DNA of 64,000 bases from Cenarchaeum sp. (GTDB taxonomy: Archaea; Thermoproteota; Nitrososphaeria; Nitrososphaerales; Nitrosopumilaceae). The position numbers were made by a program, and so were the translations under genes. Numbering within the stretch: the stretch's first letter is position 1; each line of letters begins with the position of its first letter. This document shows positions 5,078-41,728 of this stretch, one piece after another. The stretch is from assembly GCA_965242695.1 (NCBI GenBank), contig CBDESU010000001.1, positions 800,001 through 864,000 on the forward strand, in the 5' to 3' direction. The notes below the pieces were generated by a model. It was not told where the DNA came from and ran no database searches. It saw only the letters and a program-made list of their open reading frames with translations.

Positions 5078-5800
5078 ATGTGGTTGACACCCGAAGACGC
5101 CGCGCCGAGGCAGTTTGGACTCTACGTTGAGACCGTGCTGGACGACCGGGAAACATGCCACGCGATCAGGGATGTCGACAGACCTGCTCGCCGAGTACGG
5201 CGAGGTCGGCGTCGACCCCGGGTTCAAGCCGGCCAAGTACAGGGTAGCAAGGCCGACTGCTACGGGGCGCAGGGATGAGGCCTACACGGTAAACGTGTAC
5301 CCGTCGGGCAAGGTCGTGTGCCGGGGGGCAAAGTCTGTCGAGAGGGCCCGCACGGACGTGAGGATGGTTCTGCATAGGCTCGGCGTGCCGGAGGGGGGAA
5401 CCACGGCGATGCGGAGGGGGCCGCAGCCGTGCGGTACGTGGTGATGTCGGGATGCATCTTTGGCGAATGACGTGCACAGGGCCATACCAAAGCTCAGGGA
5501 GAGGTACGAGGTGACGCTCGACTCGGAGGTGTTCTCGGGGTATGTGGGGTCGAGGGGTTTGGAGGGGAAGAGGATGGAGGCGTCTCCGTCCAGGTATTCG
5601 CGCCTGATATGGGCGATGCGGATACGGCGTGCGAAGGCGGAAGGATGCCGCTGCTGTGCAGGGGGCCGACCGTGCGGGAGGTGAGCAGGGTCGTCGGCGA
5701 CATGTACAGGGCGATTGTACAGTCCGACCGCAGGCCGGGCGGGGAGGGAGCCGGTGATGCGGCGGACCGCAGGGACGACATGCGGCCGCCGAGCGTATAA
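5078..5800 (+). pseudogene. Divergent TATA-binding-protein (TBP)-like gene with several frameshifts
   Basis: VNVYPSGKVVCRGAKSVERA resembles TBP LIFxSGKxVCxGAKS; a second repeat (YVVMSG...LDSEVFSG...LLCRGPTVREVSRVV) is spread over different frames. Confidence 0.55.
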
Positions 5801-5824: not shown

Positions 5825-6712
5825 ATGGCGGGCGGACCGCAGGCGCGGCCCGACAGTAGCAGCAGGAGGAAGAGCATGGCGGACGACAATGCGGCAATGT
5901 ACGCGTACGCGGCGGCCGTAAAGTCACTGTCGCGCCTGGTCGAGAGGTCGGAAGTAGCCGTGGATGCATGGTCGACACTGGCCAAGTCGACGTTCGACAC
6001 CGGCCTGCGCAAGGCCGCCAACGCCGCATCGGAAAGCAGCGCCGAGCGAAAGGGGGCCTGCGAGACCCTGCTGGAAGGGTGCCGGCTTGACGGCGATGGC
6101 CTGTACGAGGTGTTTCCGGGCATGTGGACCGGCGAGATTGCCGCGGGGGCCGAGGGCATGGCAGCCCTGGCCAGCCGCGCAGCGGCCAGGTGGTCTGCGA
6201 GGGGCGCGCTGCTCTCGGCGTCGACCGAGCCGCCCGTGCTCGCAGAGATGTCGGTCTCGAAGGCCTGGCGGGGGTTTGCCAAAAAGGTGGCGGCCGCGGA
6301 GAGGGCGGCGGAGGGAACCGAACTCGAGGCAAGGCCGGTCGACGAGCTGGCGGCCGCGGCGGCGCGCGGGGCAGAGCGCTTGGCGCGGGCGAGGGGTCCA
6401 TTTAGCGTAGAGGAGGTTGACGCCGCTGCCGGCGTGGACGGCCATGGGGGCGGTACGGGCGGGTTGGCTGATGTGGTTGCGGCGACGGCAGGGAGGCGGG
6501 CGGCCGCTGATGCGAGGGATCGTGCGGCAAGGGAGGCGGCGGAGTCGAAGGCGTTGTTGCGGGACGCTGTAGACGTGTGGATGGAGGCGTCTGCGGAATG
6601 GGCAAGGGCGCGCGACAGGGCCGCGAGAGAGGGCGACAAGGAGGTCGCCAGCATGGCGGATGAGCAGGCCGCATACGCCGGCAAGAATGCCGCTCGCCTG
6701 CGGACTGCCTAG
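5825..6712 (+). CDS. Ala-rich helical protein, family D
   Basis: TATAAG at about 5796; shares AAxKSLxRLV, CxLD, PGxW, AGAEGMAALA and ARLRTA with 6783 and 26366. Confidence 0.72.
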   Translation: MAGGPQARPDSSSRRKSMADDNAAMYAYAAAVKSLSRLVERSEVAVDAWSTLAKSTFDTGLRKAANAASESSAERKGACETLLEGCRLDGDGLYEVFPGMWTGEIAAGAEGMAALASRAAARWSARGALLSASTEPPVLAEMSVSKAWRGFAKKVAAAERAAEGTELEARPVDELAAAAARGAERLARARGPFSVEEVDAAAGVDGHGGGTGGLADVVAATAGRRAAADARDRAAREAAESKALLRDAVDVWMEASAEWARARDRAAREGDKEVASMADEQAAYAGKNAARLRTA

Positions 6713-6782
6713 CATCGCTCCGCGTCCAGGCCGGCCGCCATACGCCGCGAGCGATTAAAAATCGCAGTGCGGGCGGCCATGT

Positions 6783-7661
6783 ATGGCTGGAAGGACGTCG
6801 GCGGGGCGGCGCGGGCGCCGGCAGCAGAGGAAGAGGCCGGCACACGACAGGGCGGTGGCTAGGCACAGCGCGGCCGCAAAGTCGCTGATCCGCCTGGTCA
6901 GGATGGCTAGAACCGCCGCATCCATGTGGTCGCACATGGACGAGCTTGCGATTGACGAGGCAGGCCGCGAGGCGGCGGTAAAAATGTCGACGGGCAGCGC
7001 AGACCGCAGGGAGATGGCCGAGGGCCTGCTGAAGGCGTGTTGCCTTGATGTCACGGGCAGCTACGAGATGGTTCCGGGCGTGTGGCGGGACGATATTGCG
7101 GCGGGGGCCGAGGGCATGGCGGCCCTGGCCAACATGGCCGCGGCGAGGTGGTGCGCGAACGGGGGCATGGCGAGCGCGTCGACGGCGAGCGTTGTGTTTG
7201 CCGAGCTGTCGGCATCGGGCGCATGGACGGACTTTGCCGCAAAGGTGGCCGCCGCCGAGCGCGCGGCGCTCGGAACCGCGCTGGATGCAAGGCCGGTGGC
7301 CGAGCGGGCCGCGGCGGCGGCAAGGCACGCCGAACGATCCGTGCCGACGCTGCCGCGGGAGGAGAGCGTGGGCGGCGGGGCGGCAGCGGCTGTTGGCGCA
7401 ATGGGGACGGGGGCGTCGAGCGGGCGGGCCGCAGAGGCTGGCAGGCGGGCCGCGGCCGCCGTGCGGGATCTATCGGTCGGGGCCGTCGAGAGGGCCGCAA
7501 TGGCGCGGCGCGATGCGGCCGGCGTGTGGGCGGAATCTTCCGCACTGTGGTCGAGGGTGCGCAGGGATGCCGCAAGGGAGGGCGATGCGGCCGCTGAGGC
7601 TCTGGCCAGCGTGCAGGCAAGGACGGCTAAAGAGCATGCGACGCGCCTGAGGACTGCCTAG
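6783..7661 (+). CDS. Ala-rich helical protein, family D
   Basis: ATTAAAAA at about 6754; colinear with 26366..27241. Confidence 0.75.
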   Translation: MAGRTSAGRRGRRQQRKRPAHDRAVARHSAAAKSLIRLVRMARTAASMWSHMDELAIDEAGREAAVKMSTGSADRREMAEGLLKACCLDVTGSYEMVPGVWRDDIAAGAEGMAALANMAAARWCANGGMASASTASVVFAELSASGAWTDFAAKVAAAERAALGTALDARPVAERAAAAARHAERSVPTLPREESVGGGAAAAVGAMGTGASSGRAAEAGRRAAAAVRDLSVGAVERAAMARRDAAGVWAESSALWSRVRRDAAREGDAAAEALASVQARTAKEHATRLRTA

Positions 7662-8028
7662 CCGGATTGCCGCGGCGGCTGATTGGCGGCCAGCTTGGGA
7701 GCTGGCGGCAGGAGCGGCGGTGTCGCGGTTATGGCGCCTGCCGGTACGACGATCTTGGCCCGGCCGCGCCTTATATACGGCCCTGATATTGCCGCCAATG
7801 AATGATCCACGTGATAACGCGGACGAGGCGCGCCGCCGGATGCCGCTCGGTCGAGTGCCGCGCAGACGCCGCGCGGCGTACCCGGCGCAGGATCGGCGCC
7901 GATCTAGGGAAGCGCGCCATTGCGGCGGCGCACGCGAGGGCGCGGCGCTCCGCCCGCAGGGGCGGGGAGGCCGGGTGGTGCAGGCGCATCCGCCCTCGGC
8001 CCGCCCACTCGGGCACATGCGGCCGCCC

Positions 8029-8040
8029 GCCAGCCTTATA
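8029..8040 (+). promoter_or_regulatory. Family Z promoter GCCAG(C/T)CTTATA
   Basis: Recurs about 25 nt before the ATG at about 9401, 10194, 12880, 27485, 37226, 45288 and 46077, and on the minus strand at about 37619-37630. Confidence 0.75.
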
Positions 8041-8064
8041 GCCGGCAACCCAAGACGCGCCGCG

Positions 8065-8760
8065 ATGTCGGATCGCGCCACCTGCAGGGTATGCGGACGC
8101 GACTTTGCGCCGTACGGCCGCCGCCGCCGCGTCTACTGCAAGAAGTGCGCCGCAAAGGCCGACAAGGCGATCGTCCTGGACCCGGTCGTGAAATGCAGGG
8201 AATGCGGCCGCAAGTTTTCCGCGCCCAGCCGATCGTTCCGCCACTGCTCCGATGCCTGCCGCGCAGAAGGCGCGCGGCGCTACAACCGCGAGTACATGCG
8301 CAGGTACCTGACCGACCCCCAGAAGCGCGCCACGGCCCTGGCGCGCAACAGGGCATCGGCGGCGGCGCGCGCGGCCCGCAAGAGGGGCGGGAGGCCGCCG
8401 CAGAAGCAGGCGCTGCCCCGCGCGGACCCGAACGCCGAGCCGTCCGTGTGCGGGCTGTGCGGCCGCACGTTCGTGCAGTACGGCCGCGGCGTCCACGCCC
8501 ACTGCAAGCGGTGCACGGCCAGGGCCGATCGGGAGGTCGACAAGCCGCCGCACACAAAGTGCAAGGAATGCGGCAAGGCGCTCACCACGACCAGCCGCCG
8601 AGTCCGCTACTGCTCAAAGGCGTGCAGCGCCGAGGGCCTGCGGCGCAGCCGCCGCGAGAGCAGGCGCAGGATCAAGGCCGATCCGGAGAAGGGCGCCCTG
8701 GCGGCGGCGCACAGGCGGGCGCGGAATGCCGCCCGCGGGGGCAAGGATGCGGGAGGGTGA
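8065..8760 (+). CDS. Basic tandem zinc-finger protein, family Z
   Basis: Two units of CxxC..CxxC plus CxxC..CSxxC; GCCAGCCTTATA at 8029-8040. Confidence 0.8.
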   Translation: MSDRATCRVCGRDFAPYGRRRRVYCKKCAAKADKAIVLDPVVKCRECGRKFSAPSRSFRHCSDACRAEGARRYNREYMRRYLTDPQKRATALARNRASAAARAARKRGGRPPQKQALPRADPNAEPSVCGLCGRTFVQYGRGVHAHCKRCTARADREVDKPPHTKCKECGKALTTTSRRVRYCSKACSAEGLRRSRRESRRRIKADPEKGALAAAHRRARNAARGGKDAGG

Positions 8761-8861
8761 TGCGGGCGGCGCCCGCGGATCGCATCTTCCGCCCGCGCCT
8801 TCCGACAGGGCCAAAAACGGCCCTGTGCGCCTGCTCGCAATGGCGGATCGGCACGGCGGGG

Positions 8862-9330
8862 ATGCGCCCAAGCTGGGAGGAGGCTGGAGATGAGCGTCAT
8901 GGGTGCGATCAGCACCAGTCTCCACTGCGCGTCGCAACTGCTCAGGCCGTACTTGGATGCCCAGAGGGCCGTCGAGTCGCGCGGCGGCTGCGTGGAACGG
9001 CCGGACGAGGCCAAGAGCCTCCTGGCAGTGCTCAACCCGTTGAGCTACCACCTCAGGGGCAAGACCTACTTTGCCCTGGGCGTCAACGGCGAGGAAATGT
9101 CCGAGTTTCTGCGCCTCCGCACCGCGAAGGCTGGCCGGACGTAAGAGAAGGCATACTGTCCATCGAGGCCAGGCTCGGGGATGGCGCGGGCGGCCGGGCT
9201 GTGCTATCCGGCGAGGACCTGTCGATCCTCGGCGGCGTATCCGATGCCCTTGACAGCGTGTGCGCGTCCCTGTTCAGCGAGATGCGCGGGCGATGCGCTC
9301 CCGCTGCGTGGGATGCGCTATCCGCGAGCG
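8862..9330 (+). pseudogene. Frameshifted hypothetical gene between Z copies
   Basis: MSVMGAISTSLH...EFLRLR continues in another frame as EGWPDVREGILSIEARL...SLFSEMRG. Confidence 0.4.
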
Positions 9331-9436
9331 GATCGGCAGGGCCGAGTAGCCAGTGGCCGAAATCCCGGGCGGCCGGCGGCGCGCCCCGCAGGGCCGGCTA
9401 GCCAGCCTTATATCCGTCAACTCGATGCGCGGCGCG

Positions 9437-10135
9437 ATGCCGGGGCCCGCCGCATGCCTGCTGTGCGGGCGCATCTTTGAGCGGCATGGACGCGGCGGCC
9501 TGCGCGCGTACTGCAAGCGGTGCACCGCCAGGGCCGACAGGGAGATCGCCGTGAGGCCTGTCGTGCAATGCGGGGAGTGCGGCAGCGAGTTTTCCGCGCC
9601 CCGCCGATCGTTCCGCTACTGCTCCGATGCCTGCCGCACCGAGGCCGCGCGCCGCCGCAACCTCGAGCACCAGCGCAAGTACATGGCCGACCCCGAGAAG
9701 CGCGCCATAACCGCGGCGCGGGCGAGGGCCGCAGCGGCGGCCCGCGCGGCCCGCAAGGGGGGAGGGGGGCCGCCGCCGCGGCGGCGGCCGCCTCGCGCGG
9801 ACTCGAGCGCCGAGCCGTCCGTATGCCGGCTGTGCGGGCGCAGCTTTGGGCAGCACGGCCGCGGCCTGCGCGCGTACTGCAAGCGGTGCACCGCCAGGGC
9901 CGACAGGGAGGCGGGCAGGACGCTGCGCGCAAAGTGCAAGGAGTGCGGCAAGGCGTTTTCCACTGCCCGCCGCTCCGTACGCTACTGCTCGGACGGGTGC
10001 AGCGCCGAGGGCCTGCGGCGCAGCTACCGCGAGAGCAAGCGCAGGATCAAGGCCGATCCGGAAAAGCGCGCCCTGGCCGCGGCGCAGGGGAGGGCATGGA
10101 GCGCGGCCCACAGGGGCAGGAAGGCGGGAGGGTGA
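9437..10135 (+). CDS. Basic tandem zinc-finger protein, family Z
   Basis: 16 conserved Cys, RYCSDxC, DPEKRA; conserved promoter. Confidence 0.8.
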   Translation: MPGPAACLLCGRIFERHGRGGLRAYCKRCTARADREIAVRPVVQCGECGSEFSAPRRSFRYCSDACRTEAARRRNLEHQRKYMADPEKRAITAARARAAAAARAARKGGGGPPPRRRPPRADSSAEPSVCRLCGRSFGQHGRGLRAYCKRCTARADREAGRTLRAKCKECGKAFSTARRSVRYCSDGCSAEGLRRSYRESKRRIKADPEKRALAAAQGRAWSAAHRGRKAGG

Positions 10136-10229
10136 CGCGGGCGGCGCCCGCGGATCGCATCCTCGGCCGGCGTACGCGCCCGGCGGCCGGCCCGCCAGCC
10201 TTATAGCCGCGCATTTGATGCGCGGCGCG

Positions 10230-10931
10230 ATGGGGGAGCGGATCGCATGCAAGATGTGCGGGCGCGGCTTTGAGCAGTACGGCAGCGGCCGCCGCGCCTT
10301 CTGCAGGGAGTGCACGGCCAGGGCCGACAGGGAGATCGCCGCAAGGCCCGCCGTGAAGTGCAGGGAGTGCGGCAGCGAGTTTTCCGCGCCCAGCCGATCG
10401 TTCCGCTACTGCTCCGATGCCTGCCGCACCGAGTTTGTGCGGCGCTACAACCGCGAGTACCAGCGCAGGTACCTGGCCGATCCCGAGAAGCGCGCCGTGG
10501 CACTGGCGCGCACAAGGGCATCGGCCGCGGCCCGCGCGGCCCGCAAGAGGGGCGGGAGGCCGCCGCGGCCGCTGCCGCCGCAGCGGCCGGTGCGCGCGGA
10601 CCCGAGCGCCGAGCCGTCAGTGTGCGGGCTGTGCGGGAGCGGCTTTGCGCCGTACGGACATACCCACCACGCCTACTGCAAGAAATGCACCGCCAGGGCC
10701 GATCGGGAGATCGCCAGGACGCTGCGCGCAGACTGCAAGGCGTGCGGCAGGGCGTTTTCCGCGACCAACCGCAACGTCCGCTACTGCTCAGCGGCCTGCC
10801 GCGCAGACGGCGTGCGGCGCAGCCACCTCGAGAGCAGGCGCAGGATCGAGTCCGATCCCGAAAAGAGCGCCCTGGCGGCGGCGCAGAGGAGGGCATGCAG
10901 CGCCGCCCGCAGGGGCGATGCGGGCAGGTGA
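10230..10931 (+). CDS. Basic tandem zinc-finger protein, family Z
   Basis: Same architecture; promoter at about 10194-10205. Confidence 0.8.
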   Translation: MGERIACKMCGRGFEQYGSGRRAFCRECTARADREIAARPAVKCRECGSEFSAPSRSFRYCSDACRTEFVRRYNREYQRRYLADPEKRAVALARTRASAAARAARKRGGRPPRPLPPQRPVRADPSAEPSVCGLCGSGFAPYGHTHHAYCKKCTARADREIARTLRADCKACGRAFSATNRNVRYCSAACRADGVRRSHLESRRRIESDPEKSALAAAQRRACSAARRGDAGR

Positions 10932-11009
10932 TGCGGCATCGCCCGTTCCCCGCGCGCGTCCCGGGGCCGGCCCGCCGGCCCTGCCGCCCGCAATTCCAAG
11001 AGGGGCGCG

Positions 11010-11726
11010 GCGGCGGCCGGGCGGACCGAGTGCCTGCTGTGCGGCCGCGCCCTTGCGCGGCGGGGCCGCGGCGGCGGCCGCCCGCACTGCAGGGAGTGCG
11101 CGGCCAGGGACGGCAAAAAGGCCTCCCGGACGCCGCGCATTGACTGCAAGGAGTGCGGCAAGGGGTTTGCCGCGGCCAGCCGCCTCGTCCGCTACTGCTC
11201 GGACGAGTGCCGCGCCGCCAGCGTGCGCCGATACAATCGGGAATACCAGCGCAGGTACCTGGCCGACCCGGAGAAGCGCGCCCTGGCCACGGCGCGCAAC
11301 AGGGCATCGGCCGCGGCCCGCGCGGCCCGCAAGAGGGGCGGGAGGCCGCCGCTGCCGCTGCCGCCGCGGCGCGCGGACCCGAACGCCGAGCCGTCCACAT
11401 GCAGGCTGTGCGGGAGCGGCTTTGCGCCGTACGGCCATACCCACCACGCCTACTGCAGGCGGTGCGCGGCCAAGGCCGATCGGGAGATCGCCAGGACGCT
11501 GCGCGCAAGATGCAAGGCGTGCGGCGGCAGGTTTTCCACGTCCAACCGCCTCGTCCGCTACTGCTCGGACGAGTGCCGCGCCGAGGGCCTGCGGCGCAGC
11601 CGCATCAAGAGCGCCCTCAAGCGCATGGCCGGCCCAGGGAAGCGCGCCGTCGAGGCGGCGCAGGCGAGGGAGCGGCGCGCCGCCAGCAGGCCAAAGAGGC
11701 GTGGCGGCGCGGCCCGCGCCGCCTGA
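11010..11726 (+). pseudogene. Family Z copy with intact frame but no ATG or TATA box
   Basis: All four fingers are open; the ATG position reads GCG and the promoter reads GCCGGCCCTGCC. Confidence 0.6.
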
Positions 11727-12083
11727 TCGCATCCCCGGCCCGCGCGTCCGTAGACATTCAGGTCTCCAGCGTCAACTTCGCCCTATCCGCCCTAGGCGAG
11801 CGCGTCGTTTGCCAGAGACCGGAATGTGCACGGAGCATGGCCGGGGGGCAGGCCGGCGCGGCTCGACACGGCGCTGATGCGCTCAGTGCCAGTGCGATCG
11901 ACTCCATGCAGGTGCCAAGCCGGCATGGCTACGGCTGCGACTACAAGCGGCAGGGCAAGGCTTTTCAACGCCCTTCTTCGCCCGCCCACACTTCATACGC
12001 CTGCACCGGCGAAGCGCCGTAGGACAACCGCACAACAGGTCAGAGGCAGGCGCGGATGTCGAGGCGCGCCGGAAAGCTGGAGA

Positions 12084-12656
12084 TCACGGTTCGGCCGTAT
12101 TGGCCGGCAGGGGGCGGGCGTCGGCCCTGATCTTGTCCTGTATATCAATATAGAACACGTCATCCTCGCCATTGCCAGCTGGTATGTACCTGAAGCCAAG
12201 GTTGCGATAGAATCGCATGGTGTCGGGATCGTCGAGGGGGTTGAGCATGACGATACGGCATCCGATCCTCTCCGACAGGCGCATCGCCTCTTCGATCGAC
12301 CACAGCAAAAGCCTGGTGGCCACCCCCTGCCGCTCGTGGTCCTTGTCCGTGGCAAGGTAGCCGACGAGGAGTGCGGGGATGTTGCCGTAGCCCATCCCCT
12401 GCAGGGCAGGGTCGCGGCCGGGGCGCAGGTGCGCCGCCGCGACAGAGATGTAGCCGAGCGTGGCCCCCTCGTCGCCAATATACCGCCATGTTCGGTTCAG
12501 GCCCTCTTCCATGTCACTATAGGAAGTGACCCTGTAGTAGTCGTTGAACTCGGGATTTCGGCAATTAAAGTTTGGGTCGGGATCAGTGCCGGCGCGCACC
12601 AGAGAAATCTCGGGACTCTTTCGCTGCTCGCCTGCGGCGCCTTTCAACCTCTTCAT
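12084..12656 (-). CDS. GNAT acetyltransferase toxin (TacT/AtaT-like)
   Basis: FNCRNPEFNDY, IPALLVGYLATD, RQGVATRLL, IGCRIVML, RFYRNLGF. Confidence 0.8.
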   Translation of the reverse strand: MKRLKGAAGEQRKSPEISLVRAGTDPDPNFNCRNPEFNDYYRVTSYSDMEEGLNRTWRYIGDEGATLGYISVAAAHLRPGRDPALQGMGYGNIPALLVGYLATDKDHERQGVATRLLLWSIEEAMRLSERIGCRIVMLNPLDDPDTMRFYRNLGFRYIPAGNGEDDVFYIDIQDKIRADARPLPANTAEP

Positions 12657-12798
12657 GATCGATCTCCTTCATGTACTTGGCCTGCTCCCTGGCCATCCGG
12701 AGGGTGCGCCTCATCTCGGGCGTAGGGCCCTCCCTCAGCTGCTCTATGACCATTGCCCACTGCCGATCGCTGAGCGGCTTGACCTCCCTCATCATCAA
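12583..12798 (-). CDS. Putative antitoxin (similar to the DUF1778 C-terminal helix)
   Basis: LSDRQWAMVIEQLREGPTPEMRR; directly upstream of and overlapping the GNAT gene; TATATA at about 12820. Confidence 0.6.
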   Translation of the reverse strand: MMMREVKPLSDRQWAMVIEQLREGPTPEMRRTLRMAREQAKYMKEIDHEEVERRRRRAAKESRDFSGARRH

Positions 12799-12915
12799 AA
12801 AGTGGCGGATACCGGTTGGATATATACCCTTCGCGTAGGCGTGAGAAAAGTCGGTGCGTCCCAGGCGGTCGGCCGGCCCGCCAGTCTTATATCGATGAGA
12901 TCGGCACCAGGAGCG

Positions 12916-13614
12916 ATGTCGGGGCCGGCTGCCGTATGCATCCTATGCGGCGCAAGCTTTGCGCCGTACGGCCGCGGCGCCCGCACTTTTTGCAGGCGGT
13001 GCGCGGCAAGGGCCGACAGGGAGGCCGGCAGGGCGCTGCACATGGACTGCAAGGCGTGCGGCAAGAGGTTTTCAGCGCCGCGCCGATCCGCCCGCTACTG
13101 CTCGGACGAGTGCCGCGCCGAGGGCGCGCGCCGCCGCAACCGCGAGCACCAGCGCAAGTACGTGGCCGACCCCGAGAAGCGCGCCATAACGGCGGCGCGA
13201 AACAGGGCCATCGCGGCGGCCCGCAGGGCCCGCGACAGGGGCGGGAGGCCGCCGCAGCGGCAGGCGCCGCCGCGAGCGGACCCTGACGCCGAGCCGTCCG
13301 TATGCAGGCTGTGCGGGCGCACATTTGCGCAGTACGGCCGCAGTAACCGGCACGCCTACTGCAGGCGGTGCACGGCAAGGGCCGACAGGGAGGTGGGCAG
13401 GACGTTGCGCTCAAAGTGCGCGGGGTGCGGCGGCAGGTTTTCCACGACCAGCCTCGCCGTGCGCTACTGCTCGGACGAGTGCCGCGCAGACGGCGCGCTG
13501 CGCAGCCAGCGCAAGAGCGATCTCAGGCTCAAGGCCGATCCCGGGAGGCGCGCCCTCGCGGAGGCGCAGAAAAGGGCGCTGAGGACCGCCCGCATGGGCG
13601 GGGAGGAGCGGTGA
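12916..13614 (+). CDS. Basic tandem zinc-finger protein, family Z
   Basis: Same architecture; GCCAGTCTTATA at about 12880. Confidence 0.8.
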   Translation: MSGPAAVCILCGASFAPYGRGARTFCRRCAARADREAGRALHMDCKACGKRFSAPRRSARYCSDECRAEGARRRNREHQRKYVADPEKRAITAARNRAIAAARRARDRGGRPPQRQAPPRADPDAEPSVCRLCGRTFAQYGRSNRHAYCRRCTARADREVGRTLRSKCAGCGGRFSTTSLAVRYCSDECRADGALRSQRKSDLRLKADPGRRALAEAQKRALRTARMGGEER

Positions 13615-13639
13615 TGCAGCCGCGGCCTCCGCTGCCGCC

Positions 13640-13830
13640 GCCGGGCTGATCGCCGGGGCGCCCGCCGCGCGGTGCGGGGAATGCGGCGGGGAGTCTTCCG
13701 CGCCGGGCCGATCATTCGGCCGCCGCCCCGAGCGCGCCGTGCGGCCTGCGAATCGCCGCGGCCGCGGGCACCGGCGCGGGTGCGCGGCCGGGCCGCTCGG
13801 CGCACATTTCTGGCCGGCGAGCTGCAAGGC
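13640..13830 (+). pseudogene. Degenerate family Z fragment
   Basis: CGECGGESSAPGRSF matches CxECGSEFSAPxRSF. Confidence 0.4.
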
Positions 13831-13938: not shown

Positions 13939-14739
13939 GTGGAATTCGGCGCGGACGACACGGATACGGCCTATGTGTGGACGGCCGCGGCCGCGGCAAG
14001 GGCGTGGGCCGCGTCGGCGCACCACCTTGCCGCATGGGAGTCGTGGCAGATCGCATGGATGGCCATGGCCGAGTCGTCCGAGGCCGGCCGGAACGCGGCC
14101 GCCGCGGGGGTCGAGGCCGTCGGCAGGGGCGGCCGGATGGACGGGGCGGCGCTCGGGCGCGGCGCATCGGGTCTCGAGGAGGCCGTGCAGGCGCACCTGC
14201 GCGCAGAGGCCGCGTTTGGCAGGTCGGCCGCGCAGGCCAGATCGTCGACTGCGGAGTGGGAGATTGCGGCCGGCGCGCACTCCATGGCCGGCGATGCGGA
14301 GAATGCGGCGATGGTGCGCAGGCATGCCGACAACTCGCGCGCAGTCGCTGATGCGGCGGGCAAGTGGGCGACGCGGGCCGGCCGCGCCGCGGACACCGCC
14401 AAAGGGGCGATGCGCAAGTGGAGGGAGTTTGAGGCCGCGCGGTCGGGTGGCGGGGCATGGGGAGGCGACCGGGCCGCATGGATCGACGCGCAGGCCCGGA
14501 TACGCGACGAAGCCGAGCGCAGCAGGAAAAAGTGGCTGGGCAGGGCCAAGACGGCCAAGGAGTCGGTGCGGACGGCGGCCGAGCACGTGCAGCGGTACGC
14601 GGACATAGTCGAGGAGGCCTCTGCGGCGATCGACCGTTCGGATGCGCCCCTGCCGGCGGCGCGCGATGCCATGGACGCGTGGAAGGCGGCCGTGGAGGCG
14701 GCCCGGCAGGCGGTCGCCGCGTGGCGCGCGCGCGAGTGA
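13939..14739 (+). CDS. Ala/Trp-rich helical protein, family H subtype C
   Basis: CGGCATAAAT box at about 13906; VWTAAAAARAW, GRMD; paralogue at 43570. Confidence 0.72.
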   Translation: MEFGADDTDTAYVWTAAAAARAWAASAHHLAAWESWQIAWMAMAESSEAGRNAAAAGVEAVGRGGRMDGAALGRGASGLEEAVQAHLRAEAAFGRSAAQARSSTAEWEIAAGAHSMAGDAENAAMVRRHADNSRAVADAAGKWATRAGRAADTAKGAMRKWREFEAARSGGGAWGGDRAAWIDAQARIRDEAERSRKKWLGRAKTAKESVRTAAEHVQRYADIVEEASAAIDRSDAPLPAARDAMDAWKAAVEAARQAVAAWRARE

Positions 14740-15380: not shown

Positions 15381-16116
15381 GTGTACTACATGTTTGTGGA
15401 CGAGTCTGGAAACCCTCGAGCCGCCGGAACCGTTGCGCGCGATAGCGGCGTCTACATACAGAGTGGAGTGATCGTGCACGGCGATCGCGTGCACGCCGCC
15501 AGGGCGGCCATAGACAGGGCCAAGTGCGAGCTCTTCAGGGGCAACGATCCCGCGAAAGTGGAGTTGCACGGGTATGAAATATGGAGGAATAGGGGCCGGT
15601 TTGCGTCAGACCTGCGCATTCCTGATCAAGAGAAAAAACTCGAGATATTTGCAAGAACGTCCCAAGCGATTGCAGAGTCTGGCTCCGTTCTGCTCAACGT
15701 TATCGTATGGAAGAACCGCGTTTCCTCGGGGCAACGCAGCCTGCTCGGCCCCCGTGGAGGTTGCTCACGGAGCGCTTCGATCAATACCTGGCCACCTGTG
15801 GCGGCGGCGAGGCCGGCAGCATTATTGCCGACGCCAGTAGCCGCGGCACAGAGACAAAGAAAGGGATGCGGTGCAGAAAACGTGCAATAGCATAGGGCGA
15901 TGCAAGTCTCGTCCTCCGTTGGTCCTGAAGGACATCCGCTTTGTAGACTCGCTCAGCGAGCCACTGGTGCAGGCCGCAGACATGGTAGCGTACATAATCC
16001 ACAAGCACTGCCGCGGAGATGTCTTGTTTGGGAGGTGGTTCAACGCCCTTGCCCCTTGCATGTGGCATCACGGCGGTAGAATCGAGGGGTTTGGAATAAG
16101 CTGCTACCCGCCTTGA
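15381..16116 (+). pseudogene. DUF3800-family (RNase H-like fold) gene with two frameshifts
   Basis: MFVDESG, ELHG, IIAD and VDS..LVQAADMVAY motifs spread over three frames. Confidence 0.75.
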
Positions 16117-17250: not shown

Positions 17251-18060
17251 GTGGAAAAGGGCGGCCGGAACGAGGGCACGGCCGCGGACGTCTGGGCTGC
17301 GGCGGGAATGGAGCATGCAAGGGCCGCCGCGCTGCACCGGTGCGCGGCGCTCGATGCATGCCTCCACTCGTGGGCGGCAAGGGTGGACGGCAGCGGCGCG
17401 CTGGGGGACGCGGCGGACGCGCGCGGCAGGATCGTGGGCGGGGAAGGGAACACGGTCAGCAGGAGCGCGATAGCGGCGACCGGGGCCGCGATGCAGCGGG
17501 ACGTAGACGCGCTGCACAGGGCAGCCGTAGAGTTCGGCCTGGCGGCCAGGCTGTCCGGCATGGCCGCCGACGGGTGGGACATGGCCGAGAAGGCCTTTGC
17601 CCGCGCGGGGAACGGCGAGTGGAGGCGCATCGCGCGCGAGCGGTCGGGCGAGGGCCGAAAGATGGCCGGGACGCTGGGCGCATGGGCGGAAAGGTCGCGC
17701 TCGACGGCCGGCACGCTCGGGCAGTCGGCAGGCGAATGGGTGGCCGGCACGGCCGACTGGCCGGATGGCGCCGTGATGGAAGGCGGCCGCGGCAGGTGGA
17801 CGGACGGGCAGGGCGAGCTGCAGGCCGCCGCCGCTAGGGAGCGGGGGCACGCAGAGGAGATGGTGCGGCAGACGCATGCGGCCGCGCGGGTGGCCGCCGG
17901 CGACCTGGAGCGGATCACACTCGAGGCCGGGCGGCGCACGGCCGCGCTTGGATGGGTTGCCTCGGCCGCCGACCGTGCGGAATCGGCCGAGCTGAGCGAG
18001 GCCGCAGCGGCGCTCGGGGAGGGGATGGAGGCGGGCCGGCAGGCTGAAAAGGGCCGATAG
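17251..18060 (+). CDS. Ala/Trp-rich helical protein, family H subtype B1
   Basis: Paralogue of 2314..3138 with the same promoter. Confidence 0.75.
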   Translation: MEKGGRNEGTAADVWAAAGMEHARAAALHRCAALDACLHSWAARVDGSGALGDAADARGRIVGGEGNTVSRSAIAATGAAMQRDVDALHRAAVEFGLAARLSGMAADGWDMAEKAFARAGNGEWRRIARERSGEGRKMAGTLGAWAERSRSTAGTLGQSAGEWVAGTADWPDGAVMEGGRGRWTDGQGELQAAAARERGHAEEMVRQTHAAARVAAGDLERITLEAGRRTAALGWVASAADRAESAELSEAAAALGEGMEAGRQAEKGR

Positions 18061-18067
18061 GGGGCGC

Positions 18068-18880
18068 ATGGGCGTGGGCTGGGGCGTAGGCGGCCGGACG
18101 GCGGACGAGGACGACGGCGCGGCGGGCGTGTGGTCCGCGGCGGGGATGGAGCAGGCAAGGGCCGCGTCCGCGCGCCAGTGCGCGGCCATCGATGCGTGCC
18201 GGCATGCATGGACGGCGGAGGCCGAGTCGGGGACCGCCTTGCTGGAGGTGGTGCGGGCAAACGACGGGATCGTGGCGGGGCCCGGCGGGGGCGTGCGCCG
18301 CGGGCCGATCGCGGATGCGGCCGCCGCGCTGCGGCGGAGCATAGACGCGATGGAGCGGGCCGCCGTGGAGTTCAGCCAGGCCTCCAAGCTGTCCGACGTG
18401 GCGGCCGACGGGTGGGGCAGGGCAGCGGAGGCGTTCGGCAGGGCGGGGACGATCGATCGGGTACGGGCCGCGCGCGACCGCGCGGACGAGGCGCGCAAGA
18501 TGGCGCGCGGGATGGAGGGGCATGCGGCGCGGTCCCGCGCGTCGGCCGCCTCGTTCGAGGAGGCGGCGAACGGATGGGTGGCAAGGTCGGCAGAGTGGGA
18601 GGACGGCGACACGGTGGTCCGCGGCAGCGACGGGTGGCCGGAAAGGCGCGACAGGGCGCAGGGCGTGGCGGAGGGGAGGCGGGCAAGGGCCGAGGACATG
18701 GAGCAGCGCACGCTGGCGGCGGCGCGGCTGGCCGAGGCAGAGTCGGCGCACCTGGCGGCCGGCACCAAGAGCCTCACGGCGGGGGCCGTGGCACTGCTGG
18801 AGAATCTGCAAGCGCCCGAGGCGGCCGCTGCGCTGAGGGACGGAATGGAGGCGGCCGCTAGGGCCGTGCGGGACAGGTAG
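18068..18880 (+). CDS. Ala/Trp-rich helical protein, family H subtype B2
   Basis: Paralogue of 3155..3964 in the same gene order. Confidence 0.75.
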   Translation: MGVGWGVGGRTADEDDGAAGVWSAAGMEQARAASARQCAAIDACRHAWTAEAESGTALLEVVRANDGIVAGPGGGVRRGPIADAAAALRRSIDAMERAAVEFSQASKLSDVAADGWGRAAEAFGRAGTIDRVRAARDRADEARKMARGMEGHAARSRASAASFEEAANGWVARSAEWEDGDTVVRGSDGWPERRDRAQGVAEGRRARAEDMEQRTLAAARLAEAESAHLAAGTKSLTAGAVALLENLQAPEAAAALRDGMEAAARAVRDR

Positions 18881-19225: not shown

Positions 19226-19477
19226 ATGGGCAAGCGCATTGCAGCCGCCACTGCCGCGGGCGTCGTAGTCGGAACGCTTCTCATCCCACATGTCGCCGAT
19301 TTTGTCGAGCCCATGCCGGCGGTTGCCGATTGCGGCCTCGTAGACGATGCCAAATAGCGTGATACTTGCATCCGCGATAGAACGGTTATGCGCACGCTCA
19401 TCATTGTTATGGTTCCGACATTGACGGCCGGGATCTTTGCATCCTACTTTGTCGCACATGCAAAACGATCGCCGTGA
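19226..19477 (+). pseudogene. Paralogue of the 4733 membrane protein with an internal TAG
   Basis: MGKRIAAA...ADCGLVDDAK*RDTC...LIIVMVPTLTAGIFAS; TAG at 19355 aligns with Trp in the paralogue. Confidence 0.65.
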
Positions 19478-20283
19478 ATGACGCAGGGAGACCGACAGAG
19501 CCATTCGCACTGCCGTCGGGCTGCATGGCGCGTGCGCGATTGCACGGTGCAGGTGCAGCTGCGCTGCGCCCATCGGACGCATGGCAGTTGGCAGTTCGTG
19601 CCTTGGATGCGGTAGCAGGGGGCAGCATGCCAAGTGCTGGGCGGGCGGCACGGAGCGGGGCCATGAGCCGCCCGCCCTGCTCCCCGCATGATCGCGGCAG
19701 ACTGCAGGGGGGTGGCGGGCATGGCGGCACCGCCCGTCCCCTGCTGCTCGGCGCTGCCATGCCGTCCGTCGTCGATGCGATCGCCTGCACGATCGCCGAC
19801 CGGCGGAACGGTGGGAGCGCGGGAGCCGCCCGGCGGCCCGCAGCGGCTCGACATCGCACCAGAGGCGGCCGTACCCATACGTGCGGTGCAGAGGCCAAGG
19901 CGCATCGCACACGTGGACGGGGGCAGCGCGACCCTGTTCGGCGGCCACGGATGGCCGGCAGCATTAAGCCGCATGTGCCGCGCCGTGCGCTAGGGGGGGG
20001 GGGGGTGAGCGGGCGCCTCGCCCAAGGTGCATCCGCGCGTCGTCTTTATGCCGCTTCTTGCGGCCGAGCCGGGCGATGCGGGCGGCGGCGACAGGGAGTC
20101 GGCAGAGGCGGGAGCGGAGGCGGCGGCAGAATGCGGCACCCGGCACGCAGGTGCGTCCTGCAAGCCTTTCCCGCTGGCACGGCAGGGCGCCCGAGGCCGC
20201 CAGGCGAGTCGCATTCCACTCCGAATGACGTCCTTAACCTACCTTCCCGGCACTTAAATAGGGCATTTCGGCGCCCCCGCCCG

Positions 20284-22083
20284 TTGGCCCGCAAAAGTGG
20301 ATGGCTCGACCGCGTCTCGCTGCGGATGCTCGGCAGCCAGTGGGCCTTTGTGTTCAGCCTGTTCTACGACCTTGAAGAGGCCGGCGCCCGCCTGGACCCG
20401 CTCATCCGAAGGTACCTCCCGATCGCCATCGCAACGTGCCTAGAGCTGTTCTACCGCCAGGTCGGGCAGCGCCTGTTCAATGCCAGCGCCCACATGCACA
20501 CCCCCATCAACATCAGCATCACGCTAGCCCGCATGGACGAGTTCCGGCGCGTCCTGGGCCTCTTTACGCAGGCCGACCTGTTCTGGCACAACCGCAGGGT
20601 CCAGGGCGTCGACGACATAAGGTCGATCCAGGAAGATCTCGGCATGGAGAGCGTGTTCAAGGACGACCCAAGGCTGCTCGACGTGTCGCACCGGATGTTC
20701 GGGGTGCGCAACGACAACGCGCACGGGGCCGGCGCCGGGCGGTACGACGTGCACCTGTTCCTGTGGGCGCTGCGCAGGCACCTTGAAAAGGTCCTCGGGC
20801 AGCTGCCTCCCCTGCGAGCCGTCTTTTGGCTGATCGGCGCGGGCAGGGCCGACCGGCGCGGCGACCGGGATGCCGCCCTCGGGCTCTGCCGCAAGGCGGC
20901 CGAGGAGGCAGACGCCGCGGCCGCTGCCGGCGCCGACCCGTCGGCGTGCCACGTGATCGCCGGCAAGGCGGCAGAGTGGTCGGGCGATCCAAAAGAGGCC
21001 GAATCGCGGTACGAAAAGGCGATTGCGGCGGATTCCGGCAACGCAAACGCGCACGCCGCCATGGGGTGCATGCTAGCGCAGTCCGGCAGCGCGGACGGGG
21101 CGCTAGCCGAGTACGACAGGGCCGTCGAGATCGAGCCGGGCTACGCGAGCGCGCACATGGGCAGGGGACACGTCCTTGCGCGCCTCGGCCGGGAGGGCGA
21201 GGCCCTTGAATGCTACCGGCGGGCGGCCGAGGCGGACCCCATGGATGCCGAGGCGCACATTGCGGCCGGCGCCGTCCACGAGTCGCAGGGCCGGCCGGCC
21301 GAGGCCCTTGAAAGCTACCGGCGGGCGGCCGAGGCGGATCCAACGGAAGCAGAGGCAGAGATTGCCGCCGGCAGGGTGCACATGTCGCAGGGCCGGGCGG
21401 CCGAGGCCCTTGAAAGCTACCGGCGGGCGGCCGAGGCGGACCCGTCGCACAGCAAAACGTACATTGCCGCCGGCCGGGTGCACATGTCGCAGGGCCGGGC
21501 GGCCGAGGCCCTTGAAAGCTACCGGAAGGCGGCAGAGGCGGATCCAAAGGATGCCGAGGCGCACATTGCCGCCGGCCGGGTGCACATGTCGCAGGGCCGG
21601 GCGGCCGAGGCCCTTGAAAGCTACCGGAAGGCGGCCGAGGCGGATCCAAAGGATGCCGAGGCGCACATTGCCGCCGGCGCCGTTCACGAGTCGCAGGGCC
21701 GGGCGGCCGAGGCCCTTGAAAGCTACCGGAAGGCGGCCGAGGCGGATCCAAAGGATGCCGAGGCGCACATTGCCGCCGGCGCCGTTCACGAGTCGCAGGG
21801 CCGGGCGGCCGAGGCCCTTGAAAGCTACCGGAAGGCGGCCGAGGCGGATCCAAAGGATGCCGAGGCGCACATTGCCGCCGGCGCCGTTCACGAGTCGCAG
21901 GGCCGGGCGGCCGAGGCCCTTGAAAGCTACCGGAAGGCGGCGGAGGCACTCGACAAGAGGCAGGGCGGCGCAGCCGAATCCATGCAGGACAGCAGCGCCG
22001 CTCCCGATCCGGCCGGCACAAGGGATGCGGCCGGCCTCGCGCTGGATCGGCTGCGTAAAAGGCAGGGCCGGCTCCGCGCATGA
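20284..22083 (+). CDS. HEPN-domain plus TPR-repeat protein
   Basis: TTAAATA at 20254, TTG at 20284; CLELFYR...RNDNAH (Rx4H motif); about 11 TPRs of 34 aa. Confidence 0.75.
   Translation: MARKSGWLDRVSLRMLGSQWAFVFSLFYDLEEAGARLDPLIRRYLPIAIATCLELFYRQVGQRLFNASAHMHTPINISITLARMDEFRRVLGLFTQADLFWHNRRVQGVDDIRSIQEDLGMESVFKDDPRLLDVSHRMFGVRNDNAHGAGAGRYDVHLFLWALRRHLEKVLGQLPPLRAVFWLIGAGRADRRGDRDAALGLCRKAAEEADAAAAAGADPSACHVIAGKAAEWSGDPKEAESRYEKAIAADSGNANAHAAMGCMLAQSGSADGALAEYDRAVEIEPGYASAHMGRGHVLARLGREGEALECYRRAAEADPMDAEAHIAAGAVHESQGRPAEALESYRRAAEADPTEAEAEIAAGRVHMSQGRAAEALESYRRAAEADPSHSKTYIAAGRVHMSQGRAAEALESYRKAAEADPKDAEAHIAAGRVHMSQGRAAEALESYRKAAEADPKDAEAHIAAGAVHESQGRAAEALESYRKAAEADPKDAEAHIAAGAVHESQGRAAEALESYRKAAEADPKDAEAHIAAGAVHESQGRAAEALESYRKAAEALDKRQGGAAESMQDSSAAPDPAGTRDAAGLALDRLRKRQGRLRA
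21199..21950 (+). repeat. Tandem 102-bp TPR-coding repeats (about 7.5 units)
   Basis: gaggcccttgaa(a/t)gctaccgg at 21199, 21301, 21403, 21505, 21607, 21709, 21811 and 21913. Confidence 0.95.
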
Positions 22084-24993: not shown

Positions 24994-25398
24994 GCCCGCC
25001 TCTCTCCCCCTCTCGACCCGTCCGGCCGCGCTCCGCTTATCATCTGCTGTGTAAACAATTCTTAACAATCTTGTAAAAAACCTGTGACTTGCCCTCCCGG
25101 GAGGCGCCGCCGAGGGCGGCCGCGCGCGGCCACATGGCCGCCGCCGTGCGCGGCTCCTGCCGGCAGCAGCGGCAGCAGGCTCAAGAACGCCGGCTCGGGG
25201 GCCGCGCGGCCACATGGCCGCCGTCACGCGGCCTCAAGATGCCGGCGGAACGGGCCATGCCCTGGCATGCGCACTAGGCAGAGGGGCGGCGGCACGCCTA
25301 GGGAGGGGCATGCGGATGGGGGGGACCTGAGCTCATGCGGCTCCGCGATGCGGGCGACATGACAAGGTATATTAAGAACACAGGTAGGGGTCGCGGCA

Positions 25399-26365: not shown

Positions 26366-27241
26366 ATGCCTGGCAGGCCGTCGGCGAGGCGGGAGCGCCG
26401 GCAGAACTGGCAGGCGTACGGCAGGGCGGCGGCCAAGTACACGGCGGCCGCAAAGTCGCTGATCCGCCTCGTAGAGTCGGCAAGGGGCGCCGCATCCGCA
26501 TGGTATGGCATGGACGAGCCTGCAATCGGCGGGGCCGCCCGCAAGGCGGCGGCCCAAATGTCGGCAGGCAGCGCGGACCGCAGGGATGCGGCCGAGAATC
26601 TGCTGAAGCTGTGCCGCCTTGACAGGGCGGGCCGCATCGAGATGCTTCCCGGCGTATGGAGGAGCGAGGTTGCGGCGGGGGCCGTGGGCATGGCGGCCCT
26701 GGCCAACATGGCCGCGGCCAGGTGGTCTGCAAGCGGCGCGCTGTCGAGCACGCCGGCGGCGCATGTAGTGCTTGCCGAGATGTCGGCATCGGATGCGTGG
26801 ATGGACTTTGCCGCGAGGGTGTATGCCGCCGAGCGCGCGGCCGTCGGGACGGCGCTGGAGGCGAGGCCGGCGGAGGAGCGCGCGGCCGAGGCGGCAAGGA
26901 ACGCCGAGCGGTCCGTGCCGACGCTGCCGCTGGAGGAATCCGAGGGGGGCGGCGGGGCGGCAGTCGGGGCGACGGGTGCAATGGGGCCGGGGGCGTCCGG
27001 CGGGCGGGCCGCGGAGGAGGGCGAGCGGGCCGCGGAGGAGGTGAGGAGGATTGCGGCGGGGGCGGATGCGAGGACGGCGGCGATGCGGCGCGAGGCGGCG
27101 AGCGTGTGGGCGGAGGCATCCGAGCTGTGGTCAAGGGTGCGCGAGGAGGCCGCGAGGGACGGCTACGCGTCCGCCGTCGCACTGGCCGCCGTGCAGGCAA
27201 AGACGGCAAAGGAGAATGCGGCGCGCCTGGGGGCCGCATAG
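26366..27241 (+). CDS. Ala-rich helical protein, family D
   Basis: TATAAAAA at about 26337; paralogue of 6783. Confidence 0.75.
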   Translation: MPGRPSARRERRQNWQAYGRAAAKYTAAAKSLIRLVESARGAASAWYGMDEPAIGGAARKAAAQMSAGSADRRDAAENLLKLCRLDRAGRIEMLPGVWRSEVAAGAVGMAALANMAAARWSASGALSSTPAAHVVLAEMSASDAWMDFAARVYAAERAAVGTALEARPAEERAAEAARNAERSVPTLPLEESEGGGGAAVGATGAMGPGASGGRAAEEGERAAEEVRRIAAGADARTAAMRREAASVWAEASELWSRVREEAARDGYASAVALAAVQAKTAKENAARLGAA

Positions 27242-27520
27242 CCGGATGCACTGCGCGCTTGGCCGCGGGGCACGGGCGCTGCATCGCCGGCGCGCACGGG
27301 GCGATCGAAAAGGCGCACGGGTGCGATTCCGCGGCGGCCGAACGAGGCGGCGGGCGTGCGGGGCGCTGCCGGCGGGCGCGGACGGCTTGAGGCCATGGTC
27401 CCCGCCGGGGAGGGGGGGGGGCGCCGCTGGCGACGGCGCGCATGGTGCAGCATGGCGGCCCCGATGTGCACGCGGCGCGCCACGGCCAATCTTATAGCAC
27501 GGCGCCCGCGGCGCGGCGCA

Positions 27521-28352: not shown

Positions 28353-28450
28353 GATGGGCCTGCCGCCTGCATGCTGTGCGGCAGCGCGTTCGCGCAGTAC
28401 GGCCGCATGCCTAACGCCGGCAGGTGCAGATCTTGTGGGGCCGGTAGGCG
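28353..28450 (+). pseudogene. 5' fragment of family Z
   Basis: GPAACMLCGSAFAQYGR; mutated promoter GCCAATCTTGTA at about 28308. Confidence 0.5.
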
Positions 28451-37144: not shown

Positions 37145-37261
37145 TCCCCCGCGCGCAGCCGGCGCGGGCCGGATATGGGCTGCGCGGCCGCGCCCCTGCG
37201 CCGCACGGCGGCCCATGCGGCGCCCGCCAGTCTTATAGGATGCCTCCCGTTGCGCGACGCA

Positions 37262-37352
37262 ATGGCAGAGCCTGCCTCCTGCAAGCTGTGCGGCCGCGCC
37301 CTTGCACTGCCCGCCCCGTCGCTCGTACTGCGGGCAGTGCAGGGCCAGGGCC
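37262..37352 (+). pseudogene. Truncated family Z copy (forward)
   Basis: GCCAGTCTTATA promoter; MAEPASCKLCGR..., then YCGQCRARA after a frameshift. Confidence 0.6.
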
Positions 37353-37594: not shown

Positions 37595-37861
37595 CGCCCC
37601 GTGCCCTGAATTGCGGGCTATAAGGCTGGCGGGAGCCGCAGCGCCGGCGCGTGCGCCCCGCCGGATCGGTCCGGACTCGGCATGCCTGCACGGGATCGAC
37701 TCGTCGCGCACGGCGCCTTCCCGGGCCGTCCCTCCGCACGCGCGCGCCGGATGCGGGCGGGCGCGGCGCCGCGCATGCCGGAGCCCGTCCCGGGCGCGTG
37801 CGGCAGCGCGGCGGCCGGGCGTCCGCAGCCGCCCGGGCCGCCAGCGGGGGAGCCAGCCCCC

Positions 37862-41726: not shown

Positions 41727-41728
41727 AG

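Follow-up and report, generated by a model that had tools for sequence, protein, structure and literature searches.

A window of 64 kb from the genome of a Cenarchaeum sp. (contig C1, 800001–864000) harbors tandem arrays of zinc-finger (ZnF) genes, the first of which comprises five two-unit genes at 8029–13830, all on the + strand and head-to-tail. The family is interpreted, with moderate confidence, as encoding separately transcribed, lineage-specific and very basic four-zinc proteins without an enzymatic domain, which bind nucleic acid, most likely DNA. Treble-clef Cys4 fingers, from which the proteins are built, are known, and the family's closest relatives are zinc modules found in HNH/NinG-type nucleases. 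The unit itself, its duplication, the stand-alone form, the amplification and the restriction to two sister species of sponge-associated, ammonia-oxidising archaea are not described in the libraries or the full-text literature searched. No publication on the family was found in that literature, whose coverage leaves out subscription journals.

Protein architecture

The eight full copies of the window align over 231 positions and share 55–66% identity with the first copy. Each half of the protein reads CxxC-x13/14-CxxC, (A)ADRE, CxxC and CSxxC, followed by RRYNREYQRRYxADPEKRA; the spacing per unit is CxxC-x13/14-CxxC-x15-CxxC-x13-CSxxC. All 16 Cys are invariant in the eight copies and in 72 aligned sequences. 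An earlier reading of the same DNA, here called the original prediction, had described this unit layout, the Cys spacing, the ADRE and DPEKR motifs and a set of loop strings, all of which were recovered in the alignment. The RGGRPP linker, described there as frequent, occurs as [KR]RGGRPP in 6/8 copies. The proteins carry a net charge of +30 to +58, with a pI of 10.4–11.8 and 18–25% Arg, in 15/15 full copies of the genome.

AlphaFold2 models were calculated for a whole protein (the copy at 46113–46811, with 72 homologues) and for a single unit (with 40 sequences). The whole protein yielded a mean pLDDT (predicted local distance difference test) of 83 and a pTM (predicted template modelling score) of 0.39, the single unit a pLDDT of 86. 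The high pLDDT together with the low pTM of the whole protein suggests two well-defined units without a fixed mutual position. In the modelled finger 1, C7 and C10 lie in a hairpin (5–14), and C25 and C28 at the start of a helix (26–38). Finger 2 has C44 and C47 in a hairpin (41–52) and C61 and C65 at the start of a helix (63–83). This helix pairs with a further one (85–106) across a turn formed by DPEKR, giving a helical hairpin. DPEKR, taken before as the end of the unit, is thus placed by the models at the turn between two helices. The treble-clef assignment of the original prediction agrees with the models: the knuckle is located in a hairpin and the second Cys pair at a helix N-terminus, so that both fingers of a unit are modelled as treble-clef-like, with the signature CxxCGxxF..YC[S/K]xxC.

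The protein would represent a covalent pseudo-dimer, its two units connected through a flexible linker rich in Arg and Pro. Within each unit, a pair of treble-clef-like Cys4 fingers would precede a helical hairpin rich in Arg, and the 16 invariant Cys would bind four zinc ions.

Gene copies and promoters

The loci were located by a six-frame scan of the 64-kb window for CxxC-x8-20-CxxC, combined with open reading frame (ORF) read-outs. Eight two-unit genes and three fragments were identified. The proposed tandem array was confirmed at 8029–13830, with genes of about 231 aa, and the total of 11 loci in the window compares with an earlier estimate of about 12 copies. The GC content at third codon positions (GC3) is 0.87–0.94 in the ZnF reading frame, as in other genes of this 68% GC genome, which supports the frame chosen. 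Together with the 121 related protein clusters at E≤1e-3 described below, it shows that the Cys pattern did not arise by chance.

Gene 1 (8065–8760, +) encodes 231 aa with two 8-Cys units and was found by the family hidden Markov model (HMM) at E 7e-113. Gene 2 (9437–10135, +; 232 aa) had its start placed by the rule of TATA plus 24 nt described below. Gene 3 (10230–10931, +; 233 aa) ends with TGA at 10929–10931. Gene 4 (10932–11726, +) follows in frame directly behind this stop, with both units intact from about 11013 and all 16 Cys kept. It has CCCTGCC where TATA is expected and GCG where ATG is expected, and no ATG, GTG or TTG precedes its first finger. Gene 4 is probably a pseudogene, or expressed only via read-through of the gene 3 stop. 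The array is completed by gene 5 (12916–13614, +; 232 aa). Outside the array, gene 6 (27521–28246, +; 241 aa) has a longer linker and stands directly behind an Ala-rich family-A gene (26366–27241). Gene 8 (45324–46022, +; 232 aa) possesses its own TATA and ATG and shares one open frame with an upstream Ala-rich family-B ORF (44451-). Gene 9 (46113–46811, +; 232 aa) is the copy taken for the structure models.

The fragments comprise a first finger alone, followed by unrelated sequence (28368–28436, +; HMM E 3.8e-4), a promoter element with the first 14 codons only (37262–37303, +), and a promoter element with one unit up to RRYNREYQRR and unrelated sequence thereafter (37349–37594, -; HMM E 1.8e-27). 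The last two lie head-to-head within 37224–37632, each with its promoter element, just behind a giant ORF ending at 37144. The arrangement resembles a scar left where inverted copies have rearranged with each other.

A BRE/TATA-like element (BRE, B recognition element) of the form CCGCCAG[C/T]CTTATA was detected upstream of every intact copy. Ahead of gene 1 it reads CCGCCAGCCTTATA (8027–8040, +) and ends 24 nt before the ATG. Further copies are located at 9399–9412, 10192–10205, 12878–12891, 37224–37237, 45286–45299 and 46075–46088 on the + strand and at 37619–37632 on the - strand; a weaker version precedes gene 6 (27483–27496). Among the 27 ZnF genes of the host genome (G000) and of a congeneric genome (G004), 25 have TTATA at -29 to -25 from the start codon, preceded by CCGCCAG. 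The sequence farther upstream is unrelated between genes. The archaeal TATA box is centred about 26–27 nt upstream of the transcription start. An element exactly 24 nt before the ATG therefore implies leaderless ZnF transcripts. Allowing up to two mismatches, CCGCCAGCCTTATA occurs 35 times in the genome (contigs C1 and C2), in 17 cases with an ATG after 23–24 nt, and 7 of these 17 sites do not belong to ZnF genes. This suggests that TATA plus 24 nt represents a general leaderless BRE/TATA promoter geometry of the organism. Judged from these sequence features, each intact ZnF gene would form its own transcription unit with a predicted leaderless mRNA.

Relatives among nucleases and other zinc proteins

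The PHROG profile phrog_1271 ('HNH endonuclease') was matched by 8/8 window copies, with a best E of 5.4e-17 and with the first copy listed at profile positions 174–261. A second profile, phrog_15471, was also matched by 8/8. When the own genome was scanned with phrog_1271, ZnF copies fell within positions 91–308, mostly 173–260; one copy reaches 277 and one reaches 308, the latter across a stop codon. The genuine HNH genes of the same genome cover positions 255–315. From this difference in coverage, the ZnF unit appears to correspond to the stretch that immediately precedes the nuclease core on its N-terminal side, with the core missing. No Pfam HNH match was obtained for any copy, and none of the ZnF copies in either genome (G000, G004) retains the core. 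The finger-plus-helix module of phage and bacterial HNH/NinG-type endonucleases would be their targeting part and would occur alone here. The lack of a visible catalytic domain, noted in the original prediction, is confirmed: nothing above cut-off was returned from Pfam or NCBIfam, PADLOC defence models gave no match for the ZnF proteins, and the HNH core of phrog_1271 remains uncovered.

Pfam matches at E≤0.01 among 72 family members were recorded for Ecl1 (65/72), MYND (28/72) and NinG (14/72), the last falling on N-terminal profile positions ~5–59. The best sub-threshold scores in the window were 25.1 bits for Ecl1 (cut-off 28.3) and 22 bits for NinG (cut-off 25.4), and the DUF2116 and YacG models did not match any window copy. 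Among 141 distant representatives, 40 matched NinG, 24 DUF2116 ('probable treble clef') and at least 9 Pfam HNH (E≤1e-4). The distant relatives pass the DUF2116, Ecl1 and MYND cut-offs, whereas the window proteins do not. One distant relative matched YacG in NCBIfam with 66 bits against a cut-off of 79. A fused form was considered and rejected, as the sole longer close relative is an over-called ORF running through the promoter region.

The NinG/Rap-like and other HNH endonucleases (PF05766, phrog_1271, phrog_15471) have in common with the ZnF proteins a CxxCGxxF..[YF]CSxxC finger followed by basic helices. The ZnF proteins differ from them by the lack of an HNH core, by the doubling of the module and by an extra first finger in each unit. 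The treble clefs of FCS, YacG, DUF2116, Ecl1 and MYND share the hairpin knuckle, the YCSxxC motif and, according to the models, a second ligand pair at the helix N-terminus. No known member of these families contains the series of finger, helix, finger and helical hairpin repeated twice, and the window proteins pass none of their models.

Local superpositions by Foldseek pointed to the FCS finger of L3MBTL2 (2w0t; 35 columns, root-mean-square deviation (rmsd) 2.9, probability 0.51), to YacG (4tma_K; 40 columns, rmsd 3.0, probability 0.60, E >1), to a Pyrococcus 70S ribosomal protein (39 columns, rmsd 3.3, probability 0.57) and to a DUF1470 protein. These best superpositions are all weak (probability 0.5–0.6, E >0.1) and serve as leads only. 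The VIA structure search gave a Z of 2.5 for L3MBTL2 and aligned YacG 4tma_I with the second finger and the following helix (Z 3.4, 45/47 residues, rmsd 5.2).

Eukaryotic C2H2 genes (KRAB-ZNF, PRDM9, Zif268) resemble the family in tandem amplification, in encoding basic multi-finger proteins and in fast lineage-specific turnover. Their knuckle KCKECGKAF is identical and is the source of the top PDB sequence and Foldseek rows. The ligands differ, being Cys4 (all 16 Cys) instead of Cys2His2, and the second pair is placed at the start of the helix, not at its end. The sequence-profile matches to C2H2 arrays in the PDB were rejected as homologues, since only the knuckle CKECGKAF is common and the E-value per stretch is >1. 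Foldseek comparisons with C2H2 structures gave E 9e-3 or worse and a TM of ~0.1. The likeness to C2H2 arrays is at most a convergence.

The AT-hook consensus is RGRP flanked by basic residues and binds the minor groove of AT-rich DNA; the original prediction had pointed to GRP as its core. The ZnF linker shares the GRP tripeptide in a basic, Pro-rich context (6/8 window copies; 54/120 of the best homologues listed). It differs in the context GGRPP instead of RGRP, and about half of the ZnF family lacks the motif. The AT_hook family was not returned by Pfam scans of the ZnF proteins, its model being very short.

Distribution and habitat

The host genome consists of two contigs, C1 and C2, of 2.21 and 1.68 Mb. 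The methionyl-tRNA synthetase (MetRS) gene of the window (62241–63950, -) finds only Nitrosopumilaceae and other Nitrososphaerota; the closest named relatives are from two Cenarchaeum sp. metagenome-assembled genomes, with 71% and 67% identity. The ZnF family has ~18 copies in the genome. An HMM of the eight window copies identified 23 ORFs, 15 of them full-length. Most copies are clustered on C1 at 807–881 kb, and others lie at 273, 942 and 1120 kb. On C2 (1053850–1055418), two adjacent divergent three-finger members were observed, each composed of a unit, an extra CRTCGKKF..YCSEEC finger and a hairpin.

Among 61 related genomes searched at E≤1e-3, five matched. Strong matches were confined to the host genome (22 matches) and the congeneric G004 (15), while the other three matched only at E ~1e-4. 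Two of 401 Nitrosopumilaceae genomes matched at E≤1e-5, again G000 and G004; the figure is to be read as not found in the genomes searched rather than as absence. G004 represents a sister species of the same genus (MetRS 88% identical). Its MetRS gene lies ~8 kb from a ZnF array, which indicates a syntenic ZnF island. A large protein collection contained 121 clusters at E≤1e-3, all from metagenome assemblies and none named. Two 8-Cys units occur in 91 of the best 120 clusters and a single unit in 25; the remaining 4 lack it. An exhaustive search of representatives returned 1944 proteins at E≤1e-3, only 28 of them at E≤1e-30; the distant relatives, including those at E 1e-38 to 1e-20, consist of multiple repeats of this finger. 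Neither GTDB contigs scanned with the ZnF query nor IMG/VR viral contigs nor, by tblastn, a phage collection yielded a relative. JGI metagenomes gave a single weak partial match (L099, 38% over 64 residues).

Ten sequencing-run rows from four studies hold at least half of the sampled array words, and 5/10 are labelled sponge metagenome. Contigs assembled from the short reads of four runs contain the array stretch with few differences and break inside the repeats. Many 'joints' in the run contigs are short-sided and most likely represent cross-matches between paralogues. For sponge-associated Thaumarchaeota, one study describes an often raised GC content (47–67%), restriction-modification systems and eukaryote-like proteins (PMC7848895), a picture that fits this window.

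Sequence evolution

Tree and codon analyses were applied to 27 ZnF genes, 15 from G000 and 12 from G004, all of which have intact open frames. The tree groups the copies mainly by species, which indicates expansion or homogenisation after the species split. A check for gene conversion with nearest-neighbour windows revealed mosaic copies. Along gene 3, for example, the nearest neighbour changes from gene 2 to gene 4 (0.85–0.90 identity) and back to gene 2. Species-wise clustering, mosaic copies and decayed copies together indicate a birth-and-death process with gene conversion.

The maximum likelihood (ML) estimate of omega, the ratio of nonsynonymous to synonymous rates (GY+F3X4), was 0.363 for the ZnF family and 0.050 for MetRS of six related genomes, a difference of about sevenfold. 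Nei-Gojobori counts gave pN/pS values of 0.7–1.2 (omega near 1) and were rejected as inflated by the GC3 of ~0.9. As a control, MetRS of G000 versus G004 yielded 0.26 by the Nei-Gojobori count and 0.05 by ML. Site classes were fitted with own code that reproduces the iqtree likelihood. The model M2a was preferred over M1a for the 27 genes (2dlnL 39.4), and omega values of 0.12, 1 and 2.2 were assigned to 37%, 54% and 8% of the sites, respectively. The 12 genes of G004 are the source of this signal (2dlnL 16.7). In the clade formed by the eight copies of the window, no positive selection was detected (2dlnL 0.18). Recombination inflates tests of positive selection, and it is evident in this family; the tests were run with fixed branch lengths and naive empirical Bayes posteriors on a tree of 15 substitutions per codon.

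Eleven sites had a posterior >0.8 for omega>1 (50, 90, 91, 95, 179, 192, 200, 212, 217, 221 and 228), two of them in loops and most in the hairpin helices. Among these, 91/95 and 217/221 were picked out again in the G004 subset. The two pairs are equivalent: the members of each are separated by one turn of the last helix, in unit 1 and in unit 2, respectively. The ML omega of the loops was 0.57 in finger 1, 0.23 in finger 2, 0.34 in finger 3 and 0.20 in finger 4. The helices after fingers 1 and 3 gave 0.37 and 0.52, the hairpin helices 0.40–0.70 with the highest values in unit 2. Outside the Cys, constraint is strongest in the loops of fingers 2 and 4, and of the four loops only that of finger 1 exceeds the family mean. 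The inter-knuckle residues had been put forward as a specially variable part that gives specificity. They do vary between copies, but no more than the helices do: loop values of 0.20–0.57 stand against 0.36 overall and 0.37–0.70 in the helices. Loop variation is thus no higher than neutral, an outcome that the original prediction had named as refuting, and lies well below omega = 1; the loop reading is not supported.

Function of the ZnF proteins

Nucleic-acid binding, also the inference of the original prediction, is suggested by the net charge of +30 to +58 and by the nuclease-linked relatives. DNA is favoured as the ligand because the same module is located directly N-terminal to the catalytic core of HNH/NinG-type endonucleases. 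Several observations weigh against this assignment. All window copies stay below the curated cut-offs of Pfam and NCBIfam, and the PHROG E-values may owe part of their strength to a composition rich in Cys and Arg. With omega = 1 fitting about 54% of codons, much of the protein is weakly constrained. Foldseek searches of the PDB with the whole protein and the single unit returned no match at E≤0.001, and every Z-score from the VIA structure search with re-ranking was <5; the lack of a match to a solved structure is not evidence of a new fold. Of the ten run rows mentioned above, none is recorded as RNA. Zinc binding, leaderless transcription, nucleic-acid binding and the choice of DNA over RNA are all inferred. 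DNA is not singled out by the relatives, since the nearest fingers include protein binders (YacG, MYND) as well as RNA binders (FCS, ribosomal).

Two further explanations concern other ligands. The products may be RNA-binding proteins, e.g. RNA chaperones or basic zinc proteins associated with ribosomes or RNA. The local fold likeness to the L3MBTL2 FCS finger and the Pyrococcus ribosomal protein, weak VIA matches to zinc proteins of the ribosome and the spliceosome, and an Arg content of 18–25%, which suits RNA as much as DNA, are in line with such a role. It is nevertheless considered unlikely: none of the fold matches comes near significance, a core role in RNA biology would not be confined to 2/401 genomes or turn over so fast, and the relatives most clearly identified by profiles are fusions with DNA nucleases. 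Alternatively, the units could be protein-binding zinc modules, acting as YacG-like (gyrase inhibitor) or MYND-like inhibitors or adaptors, perhaps on restriction or defence enzymes or on the Ala-rich neighbours. The genes are located among restriction-modification genes and recur directly behind Ala-rich genes in both species, MYND is matched by 28/72 members at E≤0.01, and weak fold matches to YacG were obtained (4tma_I, Z 3.4; 4tma_K, probability 0.60). A net charge of +30 to +58 would be unusual for a specific protein inhibitor, PADLOC returned nothing, and the YacG likeness is not significant, the distant relative's 66 bits remaining below the cut-off of 79. Gyrase is not known to be typical of this archaeal group. 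Protein binding is accordingly regarded as improbable.

Two other explanations concern the way in which the family evolves. Tandem, species-specific amplification, loops that differ between copies and the preference for M2a over M1a (27 genes, 2dlnL 39.4; 12 G004 genes, 16.7) would be expected from a modular repertoire, in which inter-knuckle loops set a paralogue-specific DNA or RNA specificity under positive selection, as in TAL effectors or KRAB zinc fingers. The distribution of the variation speaks against it, with loop omega (0.20–0.57) no higher than that of the helices (0.37–0.70), only 2/11 candidate sites in loops and the recurrent sites on the last helix of each unit. The clade of eight window copies gave a 2dlnL of 0.18, and recombination, fixed branch lengths and the long tree limit the remaining tests. 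A loop-based repertoire is therefore doubtful. In the opposite direction, the genes might be non-functional relics, derived from the DNA-binding part of a former selfish gene of the HNH homing-endonuclease type that was amplified and is decaying. The module is common to HNH/NinG-type proteins, ~54% of sites fit omega 1, one copy lacks a promoter, three are fragments, and the setting is rich in insertion sequence (IS) elements. Relics would hardly keep 16 Cys invariant in 72 sequences, 37% of sites at omega 0.12 and intact frames in 15 G000 and 12 G004 copies. The promoter element and its spacing are kept in 25/27 genes, although the sequence upstream is not conserved, and the HNH core is found in no copy of either genome. 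This explanation is very unlikely.

If the favoured reading as DNA-binding proteins is true, the family would form a new class of archaeal chromatin or regulatory proteins and a rare example among prokaryotes of a zinc-finger repertoire that expands in tandem. The ZnF unit may also be a portable DNA-targeting module of HNH nucleases, open to study alone. The candidate roles are a regulator, a nucleoid or silencing protein, or a player in the conflict with mobile DNA. The plastic island, with its restriction-modification genes, IS elements and other expanded families, and the fast turnover hint weakly at a part in genetic conflict or host adaptation. A more speculative and rather improbable version is an archaeal conflict repertoire comparable to KRAB-ZNF proteins or TAL effectors, in which a symbiont would maintain a tandemly amplified, species-specific and rapidly turning-over set of DNA-binding zinc proteins, each under a strong promoter of its own. 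The set would silence or mark mobile DNA and viruses that invade the plastic islands or, bolder still, act on sponge chromatin after release; its variable face would be the last helix of each unit (91/95 and 217/221) and not the finger loops.

Genomic neighbourhood of the arrays

The ZnF arrays are situated in a plastic region together with restriction-modification genes, IS elements and other expanded families. Ala-rich ORFs of ~270–295 aa (families A and B), which have no Pfam or NCBIfam match, precede each array. Family A is represented by ORFs starting at 5825, 6783 and 26366 (within 5825–7661 and 26366–27241), family B by ORFs starting at 20, 882, 13939, 17251, 18068 and 44451 (within 20–1739, 13939–14739, 17251–18880 and 44451–45299). 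Family B has 32 HMM matches on contig C1 and 7 in G004 loci flanking ZnF arrays. Such an Ala-rich gene is immediately followed by a ZnF gene at 7661/8065, 27241/27521 and 45299/45324; the G004 example lies at 7081/7499 (L093). Just upstream of Ala-rich genes, an ORF at 5115–5444 encodes a TBP fragment (Pfam TBP, 26.5 bits, profile positions 39–81 of 85), corresponding to half of the domain.

Other genes of the window encode a GNAT protein (12084–12656, -), a DUF3800 protein (15381–16116), a TPR protein (19474–22083) and an IS66-family ORF (22375–25227, -). Two giant ORFs are probable surface proteins. One of ~2700 aa carries Big_5 (29027–37144), the other of ~3330 aa right-handed beta-helix/NosD/chondroitinase-B-like domains (49260–59249). 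An MmeI-type (type IIG) restriction-modification gene (39085–43381) is split into an N-terminal/helicase part (39085–40263) and a part with methyltransferase, target recognition and C-terminal domains (41648–43381) by a DDE_3/IS630-like transposase gene on the opposite strand (40514–41626). A D12-class adenine methyltransferase (59432–60607, +) and a convergent EcoRV-like endonuclease (60601–61260, -) form a probable type II restriction-modification pair. Rfam and tRNA scans detected no RNA family or tRNA in the window. Housekeeping genes are interspersed (47113–48619 and MetRS), which argues against the array region being one mobile element.

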